Both the position numbers and the translations under genes were made by a program. The notes under the pieces are model-generated. The model searched no databases. It saw only the letters and a program-made list of their open reading frames with translations, and had not been told where the DNA came from. DNA of 64,000 nt from Myxococcales bacterium (GTDB taxonomy: Bacteria; Myxococcota_A; Polyangia; JAAYKL01), in assembly GCA_012522445.1 (NCBI GenBank), contig JAAYKL010000053.1, positions 1,960 through 65,959 of the forward strand. The letters run 5' to 3'. Positions 9,249 through 18,422 of this stretch are shown here, piece by piece (within the stretch, counting starts at the first letter, position 1; each line of letters starts with the position of its first letter).

Positions 9249-10067
9249 TCAGCGCCCCGTACAGTGAGCGGCGCAGAAGTCGACAGCGGGGCCGTCGGGA
9301 TCGGCGGGGTTGGGGACGCGCACCGAATATCCCGACAGGTATGCGGCGCAGTTGTTGGGCGCATTGACGCCAGGGAAGCAGGACTCCGCCACCACGGTCT
9401 TGGAGCACAGCGCAAAGCAAGGGTTTTCAAAGCAGGGCGCCCAGCCGCCGACGGGACCGCAGTAGGGTTGCACGTTGAACGAGAACTTTTGCGTCTCTTG
9501 GTCGATATTGCCCTGGGTTTTGCCGAAGTAGCGCACCACGGACAAAATGCTCTCCGGGGGCGTGTTGTCCGGTGTGATCTGACTGAGCAACGCCGAATTG
9601 CCGTTGGCGATGGCGTCGGCGATCTCGGGCAGCTTGTACTCCACGCAGAAAGCATTTCGCAATGTTTCCACGACATTCGAAGACATGAGTTGCGCCATCA
9701 GCACATCCGACGATTCTGGCGGGATGTAATGATGAGAAGGAAACTCCTCCGTAGGCACCACCGCCGAATTACCGACTTGCGAGTACACCTCGTAGCGCTC
9801 GACAAAAATGCCGTTGGATTCCGCCACCAGGTTGGCGTAGTCCTCCTTGGCCATGAGCGCATTGGTCACGTAAAATACGCCGTAGACCGAGCTGGCCTGG
9901 TTGAGGTCCACGTTGTAAAAGGGCGAGACCGGGTCCCCTACGGAGTACTCGCAGTCGGGGAACTCCGGCAACACCTTGACGTGTTCGATGTAAAAGGACT
10001 CCCGGTTGTCCACGCAGGCATGGACCAAGAGCGCCAGGGACAAAACAAGGAATACGCGACTTGTCAT
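9249..10067 (-). CDS. Cys-rich lipoprotein of unknown function, immediately downstream of pilQ
   Basis: Start set at MTSRVFLVLSLALLVHAC (lipobox, ATG 10065-10067). The C-terminal third has many Cys (CGPVGGWAPCFENPCFALC..CFPGVNAPNNCAAY..FCAAHC). I recognised no family. Confidence 0.6.
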   Translation of the reverse strand: MTSRVFLVLSLALLVHACVDNRESFYIEHVKVLPEFPDCEYSVGDPVSPFYNVDLNQASSVYGVFYVTNALMAKEDYANLVAESNGIFVERYEVYSQVGNSAVVPTEEFPSHHYIPPESSDVLMAQLMSSNVVETLRNAFCVEYKLPEIADAIANGNSALLSQITPDNTPPESILSVVRYFGKTQGNIDQETQKFSFNVQPYCGPVGGWAPCFENPCFALCSKTVVAESCFPGVNAPNNCAAYLSGYSVRVPNPADPDGPAVDFCAAHCTGR

Positions 10068-10147
10068 GACACACCTCCCATCGGCGGATTTCGTGTCGTT
10101 TGGTTTGCGATTGTAGCATTTTTTCAACATGTCATCACCTTCCCCGG

Positions 10148-13100
10148 CTACTGCCCGATGCTCTCGGCGCGGTTGACAATTGTCGGCGTGATGAAGATCA
10201 ACATCTCTGTGCGCCGGTCGGAATCACTGCGCGATTTGAACAGCCATCCCAGCACCGGGATGTCGCCAAAGAAGGGGACCTTCTTGAAGCTCTGTCCGTG
10301 GTTGCGCGTAAAGATACCGCCGATCACCGCCGTGTGGCCGTCGCTGACGAGCAGCTCGGTGGATACTTCGCGTTTGAGAATCGTGGGGTCACCGCGGGCG
10401 CCCTTGTTGTTGAAGTCGGGTTCGTCGCGCGTCATGTTGATCTGCATCAGCACCGCGCCATCGGCGGTCACGTGCGGCGTTACGGTGAGGTTGAGCTTGG
10501 CTTCTTTAAACGCAGTTTGCACGCCCGATGCCGATACGCGGCTGTAGGGGATCATCGTGCCCTGCTCGATGTAGGCCTTGCGGTTGTCCAGGGTCAACAC
10601 CTTGGGCGAACTCAAGATGCGCAGCGTGCCCTCCTCTTCCATGGCCGACAGGCGCAAGCTGAGGTTGGCGTTGTTGGCGATGGAGCCCAGCGCAATGCCG
10701 AGCGCACCACCCGAGCCCGTTCCCGCCGGTGCGGGCAGGTTCACCGCGTAGTTGGGGTTGGGTTGCGCCCCGGACACCGGGCTGAGTCCCGCCGTGGGAG
10801 CCTGGTCGTCCGTGGCCCCGCCCGCTACGCCGATGGAGCTCGGAAACGCCAATCCCGTGGGGTTGCCCGTGGCCGCGCTGGCCGAGAAGTCGCCGCCCCA
10901 CTGAATGCCGATTTCACGCGCATACGAGCTCGTGGCTTCCACAATGCGGCCTTCGATGAGCACCTGCGGTGTCTGGGTGTCCAGGTTGCGAATCAGCGCT
11001 TCGATCTGATCCAGCGAGTTGGCGGTGTCGCGTGCGATAATCACGTTGGTCCGCGCGTCCACCGACAGCTTGCCGCGTTCGGTCAGCATGTCTTGGGCCC
11101 GCGGCATGAGCTCCGCCGCCGTGGCATAGGAGATGGGAATTAAGCGCGTCTCGAGGGGCTCCAGGGCGCGGCTCATGGCGATGCGCTCCATCTCGCGCTC
11201 GAACTCCTGTTCCAGAGAAGAGAGCGGCGCCACGCGGATCAGGTTGCCATCCCGCACCTTGCCGAGTCCCTTGGTGTGCAAAATCACATCCAGGGCTTGG
11301 TCCCAAGGCACATTGCGCATGCGGATGGTCACAGAGCCCTTCACGTCATCTGCCGTGATGATGTTGACCTGTCCCACATCCGACAGCAGGCGGAGGATGT
11401 TGTGAATGTCGGCATCTTTAAAGTCTAAGTCGATGCGGCGTCCCGTGTAATTGGCGCCCTTCTTGCCAAAAGTGTTCAGCTTCACGCTGTAGGCCGCGGT
11501 GCGCTCCTGGGGATACTCGTAATCCCCGGCCGCCTCGCGGTGCACCACGCGCGTCGTATTTCCCTTGGGACCGGCCTTGTCCAATCCCGGTGCGGCCGCC
11601 GGCTTGTGCAGCGCAAACGTCCACTCGATGTTGCCGTCTTTTTCGCGGACATCCGTGCGGGTCCGGCCGTTCAACGACACCTCCACGCGGACGCTGTCCT
11701 TCTGGCGAAAAGAGCTGATTTGCTCAATGGCACCGCCGAAGTCGCGCACATCCAGCGTTCGCTCCAATGCCGGGTCAAGCGCCGCCGTGGGGAATTCCAA
11801 CACCAGCACGCGGTCTTCATTGCCCGACTTGGTGTAGCGCACCGGACCATCTGTCTGAATGAGAATTTTTTGCCCCGTCGAGGAGTTGACAAAGCGAATG
11901 TCCGAAATCCGGCTGGCGGGCTTCTGCGCCGCCGCTGCCTTGGGCGTCGACTTGCCTTTGGCTGCGGCTGGCTTCGCGTCTGCGCCGCCCTTCATCTCCG
12001 CCAAGCGCTGCAAGCGAAGCTCTTCCTGAGTGGGCTTCCGGTTCGCACTCGCTGCTGGCGCGCTCGTCTCCTTCGCCTTGCCCTGCTGCTCCAGCTCGCG
12101 GATGCGCTCCTGCTGCTGGGCAATGGTGTTGTTGGCGAGGCGCAGATTCTTCTCCACTTCATCGATCCGCTGACGCGCCGCTTCTTCGGCGGACTTCGCC
12201 TGCTTCAGCCCTGCGTCGGCATTGGCAGCCGCTTTCTCTGCTGCCGCCTTCGACTGCTCAGCTTTCTGCAAGTTTTTGCGCGCCTCGGCCACGGCTTGTT
12301 CCGCTGTCTGGCGCTCTTTTTGCAGTTTCGCATCGGCATCCACACGCAGATGACTCAGCTTCCCCTCTGCCACCTTGCGCGCCGCGTCGGCCTGTTTTGC
12401 CTGGGCTTCGGCCTGCGTCACCGCCTCCCCCATCTGCGCGATCTGCTGCTGATAACGCGCCCGCTCTCGGGCCGCTTGCTTGTCGAGTTCCGCATAGCGC
12501 TTATCCGCGTTGTTCATTTTGCGTTCCGAAGCGCGCAAATCATTCAACGCCTGGGTCAATTGCCCATCCAGCGCCGTCTGCTTTTGTCGAGACGCAGCCA
12601 GCTCTTTACGCGCCGATGCCGCCTCGCGCTTACGGTGTTCCAATTCGGCACGCAGCTTCGCTTGCTCCCCCTTGCTGGCCTCTGCATATGCGCGCTGCGC
12701 TTCCCGCTGTGCTTGGTTGGCTGCTTGCGCCTTGTCCCGTGCCCGACTCGTGGCCAATGTCGCCTCGGTCATTTGGGCTTTCATATCGTCGGCGTTTTTC
12801 ACGGCCTGAGCCTGGGCCTGTTTCGCCGTCTCCGCCTCGCGTTGCGCCTTGTCCAGATCGCCTTGCAAGGCACCCAATCGCTGCTCCAATCCTTCGCGAC
12901 GCGCCCGTTCTTGCGCGGCTTCGGCGTTGGCGCGCTCGATTTGCACCGACAGCGAGCGGATCTTCTCCGCCACTTTCTTGTCGGCCTGCGACGCCCCCTT
13001 TAACAGCGCTTCGCGGCTCTGCTCTTCTTTGCGCAGCGCCTCTTTCAACGCCTGATTGGCGGCCTCTCTCTCCGCGCTCGTGCGTTGGATTTCGCTCTCC

Positions 13101-13795
13101 AACTGCGCGCTCTGCGCCTTGATCTTGTTGAGCTCCGCGCTGGCTTGTCGCCACAAGTTGCGCGCCTCTTCGGCCTCGGCTTTCACCATGGCCACTTCGC
13201 GACCCGCATCCTGTTTGGCGCGTGCAATTTCATCGCTGGCGTTTTTCTCGATCTCAGCGATGCGCGCGGCACTGGACAAGGAGATCTCCTGTTCCGAGTC
13301 CTGTTTGGCGGATGGTTTGGCGGCGCTGGGCTCACCGTTGAGCACCACCACCAAATTGTTGCCATCCACCTTCACTCGGTACGCGGCTTCGTCTTTAAAG
13401 CCGATCATCACGCGACTGACGCGCACCTTGCCCGAGGTGAACTCGGAAACAGCAACACCGTCGATAAGCGCGGTCTTGCGATCCGACACCGCCGGCACGC
13501 CGTTGATGTTGCTATTGGCCAAATCAATGACCAATCGGCGCGGAGACGCGAGCTTGAAGGCGGTGTACATCGGGCGTTCCGAACCGACGATGGTCACGAC
13601 CGTCTGGGCGCCTTTCTGACTCACCTGAATATCGCGAATCCGGTTGCTGGCCTCCGTCGGCGTCGATGCCATAACGTAGCTGGCACAGACAGCTACGCCG
13701 AGCATTGCCATCAATGCCCGTGCCCATTTGTTTGCTGTTTTCGGGGACCTCATCATTGCCCTCTCCTTGCTAACACCGCTGGTCAATGTGTTCAC
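10148..13795 (-). CDS. pilQ: Type IV pilus secretin PilQ with two AMIN-like domains separated by a very long coiled-coil insertion
   Basis: 1215 aa. AMIN-like N-terminal domain (IRDIQVSQKGAQTVVTIVGS..RRLVIDLAN). Second AMIN-like domain (ISDIRFVNSSTGQKILIQTDG..VLVLEF). N0/secretin core (VNIITADDVKGSVTIRMRNVPWDQALD..; VLIEGRIVEATSSYAREIGIQWGG; PFFGDIPVLGWLFKS). Confidence 0.9.
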   Translation of the reverse strand: MNTLTSGVSKERAMMRSPKTANKWARALMAMLGVAVCASYVMASTPTEASNRIRDIQVSQKGAQTVVTIVGSERPMYTAFKLASPRRLVIDLANSNINGVPAVSDRKTALIDGVAVSEFTSGKVRVSRVMIGFKDEAAYRVKVDGNNLVVVLNGEPSAAKPSAKQDSEQEISLSSAARIAEIEKNASDEIARAKQDAGREVAMVKAEAEEARNLWRQASAELNKIKAQSAQLESEIQRTSAEREAANQALKEALRKEEQSREALLKGASQADKKVAEKIRSLSVQIERANAEAAQERARREGLEQRLGALQGDLDKAQREAETAKQAQAQAVKNADDMKAQMTEATLATSRARDKAQAANQAQREAQRAYAEASKGEQAKLRAELEHRKREAASARKELAASRQKQTALDGQLTQALNDLRASERKMNNADKRYAELDKQAARERARYQQQIAQMGEAVTQAEAQAKQADAARKVAEGKLSHLRVDADAKLQKERQTAEQAVAEARKNLQKAEQSKAAAEKAAANADAGLKQAKSAEEAARQRIDEVEKNLRLANNTIAQQQERIRELEQQGKAKETSAPAASANRKPTQEELRLQRLAEMKGGADAKPAAAKGKSTPKAAAAQKPASRISDIRFVNSSTGQKILIQTDGPVRYTKSGNEDRVLVLEFPTAALDPALERTLDVRDFGGAIEQISSFRQKDSVRVEVSLNGRTRTDVREKDGNIEWTFALHKPAAAPGLDKAGPKGNTTRVVHREAAGDYEYPQERTAAYSVKLNTFGKKGANYTGRRIDLDFKDADIHNILRLLSDVGQVNIITADDVKGSVTIRMRNVPWDQALDVILHTKGLGKVRDGNLIRVAPLSSLEQEFEREMERIAMSRALEPLETRLIPISYATAAELMPRAQDMLTERGKLSVDARTNVIIARDTANSLDQIEALIRNLDTQTPQVLIEGRIVEATSSYAREIGIQWGGDFSASAATGNPTGLAFPSSIGVAGGATDDQAPTAGLSPVSGAQPNPNYAVNLPAPAGTGSGGALGIALGSIANNANLSLRLSAMEEEGTLRILSSPKVLTLDNRKAYIEQGTMIPYSRVSASGVQTAFKEAKLNLTVTPHVTADGAVLMQINMTRDEPDFNNKGARGDPTILKREVSTELLVSDGHTAVIGGIFTRNHGQSFKKVPFFGDIPVLGWLFKSRSDSDRRTEMLIFITPTIVNRAESIGQ

Positions 13796-13882: not shown

Positions 13883-14551
13883 TTATTTGCTGGGGTAAAG
13901 CGGGATGAAACGGGTCACATCGTTTTCGGCTGGCGTTAGGGGATCATCGCGCACCAAGTAGATGCCGCGCTCCTCTTCTTTGCCGGCGGCGGTGATGCGG
14001 TGTACCTTCCAATTCAACTGAATTTTCTCGGCGCCGCTGCCCGAATCGACAAAGTCTGCCTTGCCCACATAATCCCCACGGCGCAGCACGACACCGACAT
14101 TTCCCGGGGTGAGCACCATGGCGCGCGGATCGCCGATGTTGGTGATAATGGCCACGAGCTTCAGTTGGGAGACGTCGTATTCCTCCAACTTCACCTCGCG
14201 CTGCACGCCCTTCACTGTGTCGGCGCCACGCACCAGGACCTCGACGAACGGGCGAAAGGGATCGCGGGTGTCCAGGTTCTCGATGAAATTGGATTCTGAG
14301 ATCGGCGGTATCAACGCTTCACTGGCCAGCTTGTCGGCATCGGCCTGGGCCACCAAACCCGCCCCGCCTTTTTGCTCGATTTTTTCACGTGCTTCCGGAG
14401 AAGGTCTGCCCAAAGCGGTGCCCTTTGGCTGCCGAAAGCGGCCTTCTTTCTTTTCCTCTTCGCAGCCCATGGCCAGAAACAGAAAAACCGCAGACAGCAA
14501 CAGAACAATGATTTTTTTGATTGCGCGATGCATTGTTTCTTCTGCTTTCAT
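13883..14551 (-). CDS. pilP: Type IV pilus assembly lipoprotein PilP
   Basis: Lipobox LFLAMGC, RDPFRPF motif, C-terminal beta domain (LKLVAIITNIGDPRAMVLTPGNVGVVLRRGDYVG), and position between pilO and pilQ. Confidence 0.8.
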   Translation of the reverse strand: MKAEETMHRAIKKIIVLLLSAVFLFLAMGCEEEKKEGRFRQPKGTALGRPSPEAREKIEQKGGAGLVAQADADKLASEALIPPISESNFIENLDTRDPFRPFVEVLVRGADTVKGVQREVKLEEYDVSQLKLVAIITNIGDPRAMVLTPGNVGVVLRRGDYVGKADFVDSGSGAEKIQLNWKVHRITAAGKEEERGIYLVRDDPLTPAENDVTRFIPLYPSK

Positions 14552-14559
14552 CCTCTTGG

Positions 14560-15153
14560 TTATTTCTTCGTGCTTGTTTTCTTGGCACCGGGATCTTTGG
14601 AGAGCGCACGGAACGTCGTGGCCATAAATTTGGCCGACAGCATGGTGCCCGACTCCGAGAGCACCGGATTCTCCAAAATGATGTTCTCAACGTTGATCAC
14701 GCGGTCCAATTTACCAATCTGGTAGAAAAACTTGGCGATTTGGTGGTAGCTGCCCGACAGCTCCAGCATGACGGGGATGCGGGCGTAATAGGCCTCCGGC
14801 GATTCGGCCAGCGGCTTAACCGACTTCAATTCGATGCCCGCCAGATCTGCCACCACGTTTAAACTGTTGAGGAATGACGCCATCTCGGATTCCGAGGGCA
14901 AAATCATCCGCTGCTTCACCGACGCGATTTCCAAATCATCCCGGCGCTTGCGATCCTCGTTGTAGGTCTTCTCGCGGATTTTGACGTCTTCCAGCTTGGT
15001 CTTCAGGGTTTTGTTTTCGCGCTCCAGCTTGGCGAGTTGATCGCGCGCGGGCGAAATTTTCAGAAACCAGAACAGCGCCGCAACCACCAGGACCAACACC
15101 ACGAGGATGGCCACCTTTTTCGACACCGCCATTTTTGCAAAATTGTCCAACAT
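14560..15153 (-). CDS. pilO: Type IV pilus assembly protein PilO
   Basis: 197 aa with a single N-terminal TM, a coiled coil, then a ferredoxin-like domain (IPVMLELSGSYHQIAKFFYQIGKLDRVINVENI). Gene order supports the call. Confidence 0.85.
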   Translation of the reverse strand: MLDNFAKMAVSKKVAILVVLVLVVAALFWFLKISPARDQLAKLERENKTLKTKLEDVKIREKTYNEDRKRRDDLEIASVKQRMILPSESEMASFLNSLNVVADLAGIELKSVKPLAESPEAYYARIPVMLELSGSYHQIAKFFYQIGKLDRVINVENIILENPVLSESGTMLSAKFMATTFRALSKDPGAKKTSTKK

Positions 15154-15167
15154 ACCCGGGACTCCTG

Positions 15168-15830
15168 CTATTTGTATTTCACGCTGCCAATCAGGGAAAA
15201 AGAAACCACCTTGTCCATGTTTTTGAGCTCCAGCCCCGAGGTCTTTACCTTGGGCACCGCCAAAGACGTGGACACCAACTCACTCGACACAAAGAAGTCT
15301 GAGAGGTTCAGCCGCCGCAAAAACTCCGCGACATCTTCGTGCGAGACGCCTTGTCCGGTGATGGTCACGTTGCGATCTTTTTCGCGAAAAGTGTTGATCC
15401 AGACCCGTCGAAAATCCCAGTCCTCGTCGTATCCGCGGATGGGGTTCTCTTTAATGAGGGCTTGGTAGCGATCGTTGTGAATGGTCGGTTTTCCCGAACG
15501 CGACAAAATGCGTGAGATCTCGAGCATCACGTTGACCGGGCCAGTTCTCGCCGCAACGAGGGCGTCGATGGCCTCCTGCCGCTTTATGTATTCGTCGATT
15601 TCTTTCAGGATCTCTTTGTGCTCCGCCATGCTGCTCTCGATGCGCTTAATTTGTGCATCCAGGGAGCCGTTCTCATTTTTTTGCGCCTTAATGTCGTCGC
15701 TGATGCCCATGAACATGATGAAGAGGATGAGCACCTCCACTGCGACGACGAGAAAGCCGATGATCAGTTGGTTGCGCAGGGCTTCTTTTTTGCGCTCTTG
15801 CTTAATGGGGAGAAGGTTGATTCTGATCAT
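15168..15830 (-). CDS. pilN: Type IV pilus assembly protein PilN
   Basis: Starts MIRINLLPIKQERKKE (the INLLP motif that binds PilM), followed by a TM helix and a periplasmic domain. Confidence 0.85.
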   Translation of the reverse strand: MIRINLLPIKQERKKEALRNQLIIGFLVVAVEVLILFIMFMGISDDIKAQKNENGSLDAQIKRIESSMAEHKEILKEIDEYIKRQEAIDALVAARTGPVNVMLEISRILSRSGKPTIHNDRYQALIKENPIRGYDEDWDFRRVWINTFREKDRNVTITGQGVSHEDVAEFLRRLNLSDFFVSSELVSTSLAVPKVKTSGLELKNMDKVVSFSLIGSVKYK

Positions 15831-15831
15831 T

Positions 15832-16893
15832 TCAGATGCGCTCCTTCTGCTTTCTCAATGCCAGCCCCAGACAAACCGAGGCCTGCGGAGCTTGCCGGCG
15901 CAACACCGTCGGGCTGAATTGCTTTTCGTCGAACAAGACACGGCGAAAGGGATCGAGCATCTCCACGGGAACCCGAGAGCGCCGCTCAATAGATGCGCGC
16001 ACCTGGGGTAGATTGGAGGTTCCGCCCGTGATGAAAATTTTGGCGATTTCTCCGTAGGTGCTAGTGGCCATGTAAAAATCGAGCGAACGTTGAATTTCGC
16101 CCGCCAAGGTGTCCACCACGGACGAGATGATTTCGTCCACCTCCCGCGGCACCACTTCCTGGGAGTCCTCAAGGCCGCCCGCTTTGTAGGCTTCGGCTTC
16201 CTCGTGGCTCACCTGCAGTTGCTTTTGAATTTCCTCGGTGATCAAGGCGCCGCCATTGGAGATGTCGCGGGTAAACTGCGAGACCCCTGCGTGCACGATG
16301 TTCACCGTGGTCACTTCGGCGCCGATGTTGAGCAGCGCCAGGGTTTCGTTGGCGGCAAAGCCGTAGTTCAATTCGTACACGTTTTGCACGACGAAGGCGT
16401 CGATATCCACCACCATGGGGGAGAGCTTCGCGCCCTTCACCACCTCGACCAAATCTTGGATTTCATCTTTTTTGGCCGCCACCAACAACACGTCCATCTG
16501 TCCGGCCTCTTCGTTGGAGCCCAAGATGTTGTAGTCGATTTCCACTTCGGAGATGTCGAAGGGGATGTGCTGCTCGGCCTCCCACTGAATTTGTTCTTCC
16601 AGCTCCTCGCGCTTCATCAACGGCAAGTTCAGCTTTTTAATGATCACCGAGTTGCCCGAAATCGAGAGGGCCACTTCTTTTTGCGAAATGCGCAAGTCTT
16701 TGAACAACTTACGCAATCCATCCACCACGGCGCTGTGGTTCATAACGTGCCCATCGACAATCGACTGCGGCGGCAGGGGTTCGATACCGTATTTTTGCAA
16801 GTGGTACCCCCGCCCCGACTTCCGCAGTTGGAGCGCCTTGATTGAAGATGTTCCGATATCCACACCAATGAGTTGTTTGCCTTCGAATATCAT
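15832..16893 (-). CDS. pilM: Type IV pilus assembly ATPase-fold protein PilM
   Basis: 353 aa, actin-like fold signature LIGVDIGTSSIKALQL. Followed 1 nt later by pilN. Confidence 0.92.
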   Translation of the reverse strand: MIFEGKQLIGVDIGTSSIKALQLRKSGRGYHLQKYGIEPLPPQSIVDGHVMNHSAVVDGLRKLFKDLRISQKEVALSISGNSVIIKKLNLPLMKREELEEQIQWEAEQHIPFDISEVEIDYNILGSNEEAGQMDVLLVAAKKDEIQDLVEVVKGAKLSPMVVDIDAFVVQNVYELNYGFAANETLALLNIGAEVTTVNIVHAGVSQFTRDISNGGALITEEIQKQLQVSHEEAEAYKAGGLEDSQEVVPREVDEIISSVVDTLAGEIQRSLDFYMATSTYGEIAKIFITGGTSNLPQVRASIERRSRVPVEMLDPFRRVLFDEKQFSPTVLRRQAPQASVCLGLALRKQKERI

Positions 16894-17358
16894 TCAGTCA
16901 TCCTCAAAAACTTTACGCCGATCGGCCACTTTTAGGCCGAGGGCTTTGAGTATCTTTCGCTTGGTGTCCATGCGGCATCCAAAACCATTTTCGATGCGCG
17001 TCACTGTCAACACGGACAACCCCGCCTTTCGGGCGAGTTCCGCCTTGCTCATCATTTGTTCCAATCGAATTTCGCGCAGGCGGTTGCGAACGGGCCGTGC
17101 GGGCTTCTTCGCAGCAGCGGTGCGCTGCGGATTGGCTTGTGGTGCTACCGTCGGCGCATCCGTCTTGGCCGCGTGCGCATCGTCGAGCAGCGGTCGCGCG
17201 CTGGGTGCATCCGCAGAGGTGTGCGCAACCCCCGTCGGGCCAGCTCCCGCGTCACGCGGTGTTGCAGTCTTGTTTTCAGGCTTATCCGGCATGCCTGTCA
17301 TCTCCCAATAAATCGCTTCACTCATTTCACTGTTTTCAAATTGTATGTAATTCACCAT
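16894..17358 (-). CDS. XRE-family helix-turn-helix protein (disordered N-terminus, C-terminal HTH)
   Basis: C-terminal LREIRLEQMMSKAELARKAGLSVLTVTRIENGFGC is a Cro/C1-type HTH. Its stop codon (16894-16896) directly abuts the pilM start codon (16891-16893). Confidence 0.7.
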   Translation of the reverse strand: MVNYIQFENSEMSEAIYWEMTGMPDKPENKTATPRDAGAGPTGVAHTSADAPSARPLLDDAHAAKTDAPTVAPQANPQRTAAAKKPARPVRNRLREIRLEQMMSKAELARKAGLSVLTVTRIENGFGCRMDTKRKILKALGLKVADRRKVFEDD

Positions 17359-17628: not shown

Positions 17629-17723
17629 TGAACTTTTGTTTCCAAAACTTTAACCAACTGAATTTATTGATATTTTTATTTGGCCCCTAATTTGCAGCCG
17701 TGTTTCGTAACCCTTTTGCAGAA

Positions 17724-18422
17724 ATGAATTATATGAAAACCAACAACCCAATGCACCCCAGCGCCAACCGCTCTACCGCCGACCATCACAGCTTTCAGGC
17801 CGTGGTCGTCCAACACATTCCCCTGGTACAAAAAATGGCCCGCCGCGTGGCCGCAAACGCTTCGGCCCACATCGCTTACGACGATTTGTTCAGCGCCGGC
17901 ACCCTGGGGCTCATCAACTCCGTGATCCGCAATCGCGGCGGCGAACCCCGCTCTTTCATCAGCTACATCAAAATACGCGTCCTCGGCGCCATGTACGACG
18001 AGCTGCGGGCCAGCCGCTGGCGCCCCCGACAATCCCCAAACGGCAGACGCGCCGCCAACCTCTCGCATGCCAGCCAGCCCGACACCATCGTATTGCTCGA
18101 AGATCTCGGCGGCACCCCAACCTGGCAACCCCACCATCCGAACCCCACCCCCGATCCCCACGAGGTCCTGTCGCGCAAGCAAACGCGGCGCACGCTCTAC
18201 AAGGCGCTGTCCACGCTTCCCGCGCGCGATCAATTGATTTTGCAGCTACATTATTTCAAAGGGATGAAAATGCGTGAAATCGGCGGTTTTCTCGGCATCT
18301 CCGAAGGTCGCGTGTCGCAAATCCATCACCGCGCCCTGGCGCGTGTCCGCCCATACATGCAAAACACCGCGTCGCCGCCCTGCCCCCAGGCACATAGCGC
18401 CCCCACAGCCGTGTCGAATTAA
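17724..18422 (+). CDS. Sigma-70 family RNA polymerase sigma factor, FliA/WhiG (sigma-28)-like
   Basis: Region 2 (HIPLVQKMARRV..YDDLFSAGTLGLINSV..YIKIRVLGAMYDELR) and region 4 HTH (LPARDQLILQLHYFKGMKMREIGGFLGISEGRVSQIHHRAL). Start could be GTG 17700, ATG 17724 or ATG 17733. Confidence 0.85.
   Translation: MNYMKTNNPMHPSANRSTADHHSFQAVVVQHIPLVQKMARRVAANASAHIAYDDLFSAGTLGLINSVIRNRGGEPRSFISYIKIRVLGAMYDELRASRWRPRQSPNGRRAANLSHASQPDTIVLLEDLGGTPTWQPHHPNPTPDPHEVLSRKQTRRTLYKALSTLPARDQLILQLHYFKGMKMREIGGFLGISEGRVSQIHHRALARVRPYMQNTASPPCPQAHSAPTAVSN

Follow-up and report, generated by a model that had tools for sequence, protein, structure and literature searches.

The window analysed here is a 64,000-nucleotide stretch of contig JAAYKL010000053.1 (GenBank assembly GCA_012522445.1, Myxococcales bacterium). 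Its reverse strand carries a pilMNOPQ operon ending in the gene for PilQ, the type IVa pilus secretin, and a sequence-only reading of this DNA had drawn attention to a long insertion between two AMIN domains of that protein. Our analysis indicates that the insertion is a coiled coil with a predicted hairpin shape, that it is real, conserved, and widespread rather than unique to the window, and that it is apparently undescribed. The genes of the operon and the parts of PilQ outside the insertion are as follows:

15832-16893 (-): pilM (Pfam PilM_2, 7e-79)
15168-15830 (-): pilN (Pfam PilN, 1e-9)
14560-15153 (-): pilO (Pfam PilO, 2.5e-27)
13883-14551 (-): pilP (22.5 bits, slightly below the cut-off of 25.6)
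10148..13756 (-): pilQ, type IVa pilus secretin, 1202 amino acids (aa) from ATG (TIGR02515; Pfam Secretin, Secretin_N, STN, and AMIN; Foldseek)
13667..13756 (-): signal peptide MMRSPKTANKWARALMAMLGVAVCASYVMA, residues 14-43 (in the translation, a charged n-region, then a hydrophobic stretch and a VMA motif; putative cleavage site)
13328..13648 (-): AMIN1, residues 50-156 (Pfam AMIN stretch; custom AMIN1 hidden Markov model (HMM), 7e-40; AlphaFold beta-sandwich with predicted local distance difference test (pLDDT) scores of 80-90)
11603..11911 (-): AMIN2, residues 629-731 (best Pfam AMIN stretch 632-713; custom HMM, 7.5e-35; AlphaFold beta-sandwich, pLDDT 77-88)
11225..11440 (-): N0/STN, residues 786-857 (Pfam STN at 813-857, 4e-9, passing the cut-off; GspD-N0 at 790-855, slightly below the cut-off with 24.7 versus 27 bits)
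10964..11149 (-): Secretin_N (N3-type), residues 883-944 (PF03958, 8.6e-12, passing the cut-off)
10175..10645 (-): secretin C-domain, the outer-membrane pore, residues 1051-1207 (PF00263, 3e-49; Foldseek to 6W6M and 6VE2)

The pilQ open reading frame (ORF) at 10148-13795 (-) is a single ORF of 1215 codons, with one reading frame intact through both AMIN domains. Its product is a bona fide PilQ, the type IVa pilus secretin, and pilQ is the last gene of a pilMNOPQ operon. TIGR02515 (PilQ, NCBIfam) matched residues 785-1208 with 441.6 bits against a cut-off of 284.35, and a Foldseek search with the AlphaFold model returned V. cholerae PilQ (6W6M, E = 9e-31) and P. aeruginosa PilQ (6VE2 and 6VE4) as top matches. 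The alignment-complex genes pilM, pilN, pilO, and pilP lie immediately 5' of pilQ on the same strand, in an order shared by two other loci (L081 and L082). The mechanical ORF call opens at a GTG (13795) to give 1215 aa, but translation very probably begins with the ATG at 13756 (M14), because the spacing of a ribosome-binding site (AAGGAGAG, 6-7 nt 5' of this ATG) fits and a 100%-identical database protein of 1202 aa (P0001) begins at the same position. We use the 1215-aa numbering throughout, and residue numbers in the actual protein are 13 lower. The sequence-only reading had placed the insertion at residues 172-605, which corresponds exactly to 11981-13282 (-) in the mechanical ORF; given the ATG start, its numbering is likewise 13 too high.

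As that reading had described, the insertion lies between two AMIN domains (50-156 and 629-731) and ahead of N0/STN (786-857) and the secretin core. Custom HMMs built from the homologue alignment defined it as exactly the AMIN1-AMIN2 linker of PilQ. AMIN1 itself shares 55-65% identity with close homologues. The composition of residues 172-605 is 23.3% Ala, 12.4% Glu, 11.1% Gln, 9.9% Arg, 9.2% Lys, and 7.6% Leu. Hence, the proposed enrichment in Ala, Gln, Glu, Lys, and Arg is real, but calling the segment almost purely composed of them was an overstatement, as they make up only 66%. Pro and Gly are scarce, as had been claimed: there are 13 Gly and 2 Pro, the latter (580 and 588) both in the terminal linker within the last 26 residues, and residues 189-568 contain no Pro.

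The coiled-coil character suggested for the insertion was borne out by strong heptad periodicity. The Fourier spectrum of large hydrophobic residues peaked at 3.55 residues, accompanied by a harmonic near 2.3, and none of 300 shuffles reached as high a peak. The mean best 28-residue heptad score was 3.16 versus 1.40 ± 0.14 in shuffles, or 12 standard deviations higher. Assigning registers by dynamic programming required just 4 breaks in 386 residues (at 254, 375, 451, and 489). The two core positions differ in composition: a is 24% Leu, 18% Ala, 13% Ile, 5% Val, and 5% Tyr (47% large hydrophobic), and d is 53% Ala and 20% Leu (33% large hydrophobic). Because our scoring handled a and d alike, this asymmetry is a property of the sequence. 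The core is thin and Ala-rich, as in Alacoils and parts of tropomyosin and unlike a classic Leu zipper, and the frequency of Ala at d agrees with the small residue that Alacoils have at every seventh position. An Ala-rich alpha-helical coiled coil is strongly supported.

Other origins and identities were considered for the segment. A single alpha-helix (SAH) domain is out, given that charged residues make up only 36% and that there is a clear hydrophobic heptad seam; opposite-charge pairs at i,i+4 numbered 34 versus 24 ± 4 in shuffles. A tandem-repeat origin was rejected, as Tandem Repeats Finder (TRF), run with a minimum score of 30, reported no repeats in 11800-13400. The two helical arms predicted for the segment (below) resemble each other weakly (Smith-Waterman z = 3.9 versus shuffles), and this fits shared composition and heptads as much as duplication. 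Searching the coil against the PDB with phmmer revealed no homologous solved structure, only coiled-coil look-alikes at E ≥ 0.03 (lamin, VP35, and MIC60).

We modeled residues 45-1215 as a monomer with AlphaFold2 using a 32-sequence alignment, which gave a mean pLDDT of 72. Both AMIN domains and the secretin core of PilQ folded well. The insertion was predicted as helix at pLDDT 80-90 rather than as disorder, in line with the expectation of the sequence-only reading. The model folds this helix back on itself, with confidence maximal at the tip and falling symmetrically toward both bases. The predicted features are listed below, with arm lengths that assume a rise of 0.148 nm for each residue:

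13232..13327 (-): linker joining AMIN1 to the hairpin, residues 157-188 (disorder predicted, pLDDT <50; one of two sites of length change among homologues)
12680..13231 (-): predicted hairpin arm 1, a continuous helix of 184 aa and ~27 nm, residues 189-372 (AlphaFold DSSP; pLDDT rising from ~55 at the base to ~90 near the tip; one register break, at 254)
12665..12679 (-): predicted hairpin turn ASKGE, residues 373-377 (AlphaFold loop; heptad break at 375; within the tip motif)
12647-12691 (-): tip motif AYAEASKGEQAKLRA, residues 369-383 (consensus AYxxAxxG/K-E/D-Q/R-xxL, conserved in close homologues)
12092..12664 (-): predicted hairpin arm 2, a continuous helix of 191 aa and ~28 nm, residues 378-568 (AlphaFold DSSP; pLDDT falling from ~90 at the tip to ~57 at the base; breaks at 451 and 489)
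11912..12091 (-): Pro/Lys/Ala-rich linker between the hairpin and AMIN2, residues 569-628 (predicted disordered, pLDDT 30-41)
11996-12031 (-): TQEE motif TQEELRLQRLAE, residues 589-600 (common to homologues P0002-P0012; not conserved beyond the close clade)

A long helical segment thus stands, but its helix spans only ~189-568 rather than the ~172-605 first proposed, as 157-188 and 569-628 are predicted disordered linkers. We consider it probable that the PilQ coil is one intramolecular antiparallel hairpin, ~27 nm long and ~2 nm thick. The sequence-only reading had left the geometry among three options (folding back, lying along the peptidoglycan, or linking neighboring machines), and the evidence favors folding back.

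AlphaFold monomer runs are known to wrongly fold parallel dimeric coiled coils back onto themselves, which counts against taking the model at face value, and for this reason we sought signs of a hairpin independent of it. Pairwise BLAST and global alignments over the coil gave several alternative registers, such as two overlapping high-scoring segment pairs to P0002. We therefore relied on the landmark motifs and not on residue-level alignment. In the window's PilQ the turn lies 219 residues from AMIN1 and 214 from the TQEE motif; the corresponding distances are 207 and 234 in P0008, 250 and 267 in P0004, 336 and 328 in P0012, and 282-289 and 290-322 in P0002, P0003, P0005, P0006, and P0007. 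Arm lengths co-vary, with a Pearson correlation of r = 0.94 across homologues (n = 9); grouping these into 5 length classes gave r = 0.96 (p = 0.009).

The positions of length change lead to a similar picture. In a 13-sequence alignment, the extra residues of the 12 close homologues fall at 181-200 (mean of 47) and 561-580 (mean of 81), and positions 201-480 are free of gaps. These two blocks are the two ends of the coil, which are 380 residues apart in sequence and adjacent in a hairpin. The part of the coil around the tip (281-400) is the best conserved and contains no indels, with identity of 0.26-0.40 versus 0.17-0.25 elsewhere. Identity also reaches up to 60% in the alignment block around the TQEE motif (581-600), which could be a docking motif. 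For the much longer coil of P0017 (856 aa), a single-sequence AlphaFold run predicted two hairpins in succession, turning at residues 356-360 and 781-785 of the modeled fragment, with confidence peaking around each turn.

Core composition bears on chain direction as well. Antiparallel pairing sets a on d', and parallel pairing gives alternating Leu-Leu and Ala-Ala layers. An Alacoil is an antiparallel arrangement with uniform layers of one large plus one small residue. With Leu or Ile at a and Ala at d, the PilQ coil is better suited to antiparallel, Alacoil-type packing than to parallel packing with Ala-on-Ala layers. In a hairpin the chain returns to its origin, and therefore AMIN1 and AMIN2 would sit side by side at the base whatever the length of the rod. 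Keeping the AMIN domains adjacent would explain how a seven-fold variation in length, and even outright loss, can occur without breaking the machine. It would also make the rod an appendage rather than a spacer between AMIN1 and AMIN2.

Further observations weigh against the hairpin. Among the 16 homologues with both landmark motifs, seven have two arms that differ in length by 180-310 residues. A second hairpin would account for such cases, and 3 of the unequal-arm homologues have a Gly/Pro cluster where a balanced first hairpin would end. A test for mirror symmetry of core residues peaked near 372-377, but peaks at 316-323 and 434-438 were equal to it, and its large-against-Ala score was reached by 13% of shuffles, which is non-significant. 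Across the family, Gly is in only weak excess at 0.40-0.60 of the coil length (106 observed versus ~84 expected). Identity within the coil is low (17-40%), such that alignments there are soft.

The principal structural alternative is an extended parallel coiled coil between neighboring PilQ protomers, in which ~380 helical residues would run straight for ~56 nm. AMIN1 would then be planted tens of nm from the pore, as a guy-rope or a link between machines. Heptad periodicity alone cannot tell parallel from antiparallel, a 12-15-mer of PilQ supplies parallel partners (as in 6VE2 and 6VE4), and this alternative would also account for the unequal arms of the seven homologues and for a fold-back that may be an artefact of the AlphaFold monomer. 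We nevertheless regard it as unlikely. Speaking against it are the turn motif conserved at the center of the coil, where a register break also falls, the co-variation of arm lengths in 9 homologues, lengths that change together at both ends of the coil, and model confidence that is symmetrical around the turn. In addition, with Ala in 53% of d positions, the Ala-Ala layers of a parallel dimer would be weak.

We also considered how widely the insertion occurs. With the full protein as query, a word-indexed search retrieved 34 PilQ proteins (1169-1618 aa), each with an Ala/Glu/Gln/Lys/Arg-rich and Pro-poor block immediately after AMIN1. Such a search is biased toward the coil's own words. Therefore, we repeated it without the coil, comparing the C-terminal 591 residues (AMIN2 to the end) with 1.84 billion representatives of clusters at 50% identity. 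This yielded 44,984 matches at E ≤ 0.001 and 5,269 at E ≤ 1e-30. At least 200 residues of coil-type sequence, beginning at about residue 130-180, were present in 105 of the 150 best cluster representatives, with insertions of about 200 to 1,480 aa. When both AMIN domains were located with the custom HMMs, 104 of 120 representatives had a spacing of at least 200 aa, with a median of 535 and a maximum of 1475 among those 104. Overall, spacing ranged from 13 to 1475 aa.

The sequence-only reading had implied that the insertion is rare, which proved wrong: at least 105 clusters at 50% identity carry the coil, and the window's copy is of about median length. Its AMIN1-AMIN2 spacing of 472 aa, 380 of them in the coil, is ordinary for the family. 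Heptad phasing extends across the family, as 134 coil segments had a median heptad z of 7.8 (88% with z > 4) and a median Fourier peak of 3.52 residues. Single-hairpin arms among close relatives range from 207 to 336 residues, equivalent to 31-50 nm. The family also includes long representatives, such as P0164 (2249 aa), P0142 (2076 aa), and P0130 (1989 aa), with AMIN spacing of up to 1475 aa. By analogy with the two-hairpin model of P0017, these three may hold several hairpins in series.

To place the insertion taxonomically, we scanned one genome per GTDB species and extracted one ORF per locus. Two loci were excluded for unreliable ORFs, one from Nannocystaceae (L055, with a broken ORF and a tblastn match covering 5 kb) and one with an implausible 2,991-aa run (L068). 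The insertion was present in Haliangiales (L053, L057, and L060), Kofleriaceae (L065 and L066), a metagenome-assembled genome (MAG) of Bradymonadales (L045), and many MAGs of Myxococcota or 'Deltaproteobacteria' (L001-L003, L034, L035, L037, L042, L043, L046, L048, L049, and L052). Among the scanned loci, those of Sorangium, Polyangium, Byssovorax, Labilithrix, and Sandaracinaceae lack it and have an AMIN spacing of 13-40 aa, and it is likewise missing from Myxococcus-type PilQ, Nitrospirota, and Thermodesulfobacteriota. No representative in the GTDB species scan was close to the window's lineage, and we therefore assign its organism to an uncultured Myxococcota lineage. The supplements of a 2026 survey of myxobacterial PilY1 contained no PilQ lengths.

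We built a rough neighbor-joining tree of the C-terminal part with 210 tips, 141 of which form a coil-bearing assemblage with Myxococcus-type sequences branching below. A clade of 31 Polyangiales tips without the coil is nested in this assemblage, beside the window's own clade of 23 tips that all have it. Fitch parsimony required 13 state changes for presence or absence of the coil. Pending a proper tree, our reading of this history is one old gain, one large loss in Polyangiales, and several small losses.

What the rods do is less certain than what they are. Secretins assemble as 12-15-mers, and therefore each pilus machine would carry 12-15 rods, anchored to peptidoglycan via pairs of AMIN domains. 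Rod length varies seven-fold in the family and two-fold among close relatives, which argues against the rods being a ruler for a fixed periplasmic distance. Without a fixed distance to span, we propose that they form radial outriggers running more or less within or parallel to the cell wall. There they would widen and stiffen the machine's footing on the wall against tilt under pilus retraction loads, and/or hold neighboring machines at a minimum spacing. Relatives would lengthen both arms together or add a second hairpin, and the conserved tip motif may serve in contacts. Our preference for outriggers follows from the finding that AMIN domains bind peptidoglycan and govern the site of PilQ incorporation, including its incorporation at the pole (PMC10653833, PMC5285504). 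We hold the outrigger or spacer role only tentatively and consider it more doubtful than the hairpin itself; the odds on the hairpin and this role taken together as one account are about even. One point against it is that the pilus machine works without the coil, as is evident from Polyangiales, which lost it completely, and Myxococcus, which is without it.

That point leads to the possibility of near-neutral linker inflation, whereby the hairpin is a tolerated appendage with no specific job beyond that of a soluble linker. Growth, shrinkage, or loss would be cheap if the hairpin leaves the AMIN1-AMIN2 distance unchanged. The continuous seven-fold spread in length, the low identity inside the coil, and repeated loss that includes a whole Polyangiales clade (13 state changes) are all as expected from such drift, and characterized machines function without a coil (PMC10653833). 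However, inflation alone would not be expected to maintain heptad phasing at z > 4 in 88% of 134 segments, to lengthen both arms together, or to conserve the tip and TQEE motifs. Nor does the DNA contain tandem repeats hinting at recent slippage. Moreover, no fewer than 105 clusters at 50% identity retain the coil, and its median of ~535 aa is costly for an abundant 12-15-mer. Maintained heptads, concerted growth of the arms, conservation of the tip, and retention in more than 100 clusters argue against pure neutrality, and we judge this explanation improbable.

A bolder reading is that hairpins associate via their conserved tip, within or between machines, into a higher-order periplasmic scaffold. 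This could take the form of a radial lattice on the peptidoglycan, patterning the polar pilus machines and coupling them mechanically, or of a helical palisade around the path of the pilus. We consider the scaffold a long shot. If true, it would be an organization of secretin machines unlike any characterized system.

Slightly less likely again is an element that crosses the periplasm, with hairpins directed from the wall toward the inner membrane. Each might be a single TolA-like strut that contacts PilN, PilO, PilP, or the membrane through its tip, or they might pack side by side as a palisade of 24-30 helices around the pilus path, like the tubes of AcrA/EmrA/HlyD-type adaptors. A rod of 27 nm is on the order of the width of a periplasm, and the hairpins of adaptor proteins are a precedent for oligomerizing antiparallel hairpins in that compartment. 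Conservation of the tip motif, and of the coil's tip region more generally (identity of 0.26-0.40 at 281-400), would be expected of such contacts. The range of lengths is unlike a fixed gap, however, since AMIN spacing is continuous from ~200 to 1475 aa and arms vary from 207 to 336 residues in close relatives. Pfam and NCBIfam gave no TolA or HlyD-type matches, and disordered linkers tie the hairpin to the AMIN domains rather than to the N0 ring, the part facing the inner membrane.

Finally, the sequence-only reading had asked whether the locus is an assembly chimera. The insertion is genuine and not an assembly artefact: the identical 1202-aa protein occurs on three contigs, each of a different length class, obtained from JGI, ENA, and Logan, and a more distant homologue with a longer insertion (P0022, 1566 aa) lies on an 11.1-Mb contig behind the same HTH-pilMNOP genes (HTH, helix-turn-helix). 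A chimera or a collapsed or expanded repeat, a worry that arises solely from the low complexity of the region and for which we found no evidence, has virtually no chance of being correct given these three sources, DNA that lacks tandem repeats, a single ORF in frame through both AMIN domains, and more than 100 homologues of the same architecture.

PilQ is among the best-studied outer-membrane machines, and its AMIN region has been pictured as beads strung on flexible linkers, which pin the pore to the wall and select the sites at which machines are assembled. The window's protein resembles the PilQ of M. xanthus and P. aeruginosa in its match to TIGR02515, its pilMNOPQ operon, and its order of AMIN domains, disordered linker, N0, N3, and pore. 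The periplasmic part of Thermus thermophilus PilQ is also enlarged relative to model species, but there the enlargement consists of stacked globular N-domain rings lining the path of the pilus, whereas here it is a coiled coil between AMIN domains. M. xanthus PilQ has three AMIN domains joined by flexible linkers (PMC10653833). In the PilQ of a Myxococcus sp. MAG (L063), 171 aa separate AMIN1 from the last AMIN, leaving space for a middle AMIN, compared to 472 aa in the window's PilQ. Polyangiales PilQ differs even more, with AMIN domains spaced 13-40 aa apart versus 472 aa in the window, 380 of which are coil.

In a full-text literature search we found no paper describing a coiled coil in PilQ, in line with the sequence-only reading, in which no characterized PilQ had a rod of this size. 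The nearest precedent is one line in a 2008 survey of AMIN domains by de Souza et al. (PMC2572700), which lists, for delta-proteobacteria, the fusion of an AMIN domain with a charged, TolA-like helical region (architecture viii). The likeness is clear, as both have an AMIN followed by a long, charged, alpha-helical region resembling a coiled coil in the same broad bacterial group. However, architecture viii was listed apart from PilQ (item iv), without structure, length range, or distribution, whereas the window's coil is inside PilQ and between two AMIN domains. Membership in the TolA family was rejected, since no TolA family was among the Pfam and NCBIfam matches (E ≤ 0.1-1) and PilQ has a cleavable signal peptide and a secretin C-terminus.

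Long intramolecular antiparallel coils that join their flanking domains at the base are familiar from SMC, MukB, and Rad50, and from arms of the seryl-tRNA-synthetase type. The predicted PilQ hairpin is analogous in being a two-helix antiparallel coil at whose base sequence-distant domains meet. It differs from SMC, MukB, and Rad50 in having a 5-residue turn for a hinge and a periplasmic setting. SMC membership itself was rejected because SMC_prok_B scored 29.4 bits against a cut-off of 567 in the coil region only, with no ATPase head and no hinge, and the similarity is compositional rather than homologous. Such sub-threshold SMC matches were the sole family hits to the coil.

Adaptor proteins (AcrA, MacA, EmrA, and HlyD) have periplasmic alpha-hairpins of variable length with functionally important, conserved tips. 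Those hairpins measure 6-13 nm and are set in a lipoyl domain, whereas the PilQ rod would be at least 27 nm and is set between AMIN domains, and Pfam gave no HlyD-family match for PilQ. A third comparison is with the OmpM/SlpA connectors of Deinococcus, Thermus, and Negativicutes, which consist of an N-terminal wall-binding domain, a long coiled coil, and a C-terminal outer-membrane beta-barrel (PMC9388160). In these connectors, the wall-binding domain is SLH, the barrel is a porin, and the coil is a parallel trimer that sets the distance from membrane to wall. The window's PilQ family differs from them in having a second AMIN after the coil and a coil length that is not conserved. A connector of this type was rejected for PilQ, which has no SLH match, has a secretin for its barrel, and has a coil that is predicted to fold back.

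When placed in this context, a large and deep Myxococcota clade would put a rigid rod of at least 27 nm on every PilQ subunit. If the rods brace, space, or link machines, they would bear on how cells withstand pilus retraction forces, on how polar arrays of machines are patterned, and on why Myxococcus and Polyangiales manage without a rod. Close relatives that differ mainly in the length or absence of the rod amount to a natural experiment. For annotation, the coil accounts for many Myxococcota PilQ proteins of 1,200-2,250 aa, which are not errors of gene calling or assembly.

The surroundings of the operon showed some further features. A gene encoding a Cro/C1-type HTH protein (16894-17358, -) lies immediately 5' of pilM, and an HTH_3/HTH_31 gene occupies the same place in the distant locus L081 (4379-4810) on the 11.1-Mb contig. 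This suggests that a conserved HTH regulator is attached to pilMNOPQ in the clade of the window's PilQ. A sigma-70-family gene with regions 2 and 4 (17700-18422, +) is divergent from the HTH-pilMNOPQ block. In 2-kb bins, G+C content is ~0.53-0.54 across the pilM-pilP stretch (13883-16893), compared to 0.60-0.66 for pilQ and most of the window. On its 3' side, pilQ adjoins a 293-aa ORF (9249-10130, -) with a lipoprotein-like N-terminus (…LLVHAC) and no Pfam match. In locus L081, aroK-aroB is found downstream of pilQ instead of this ORF.

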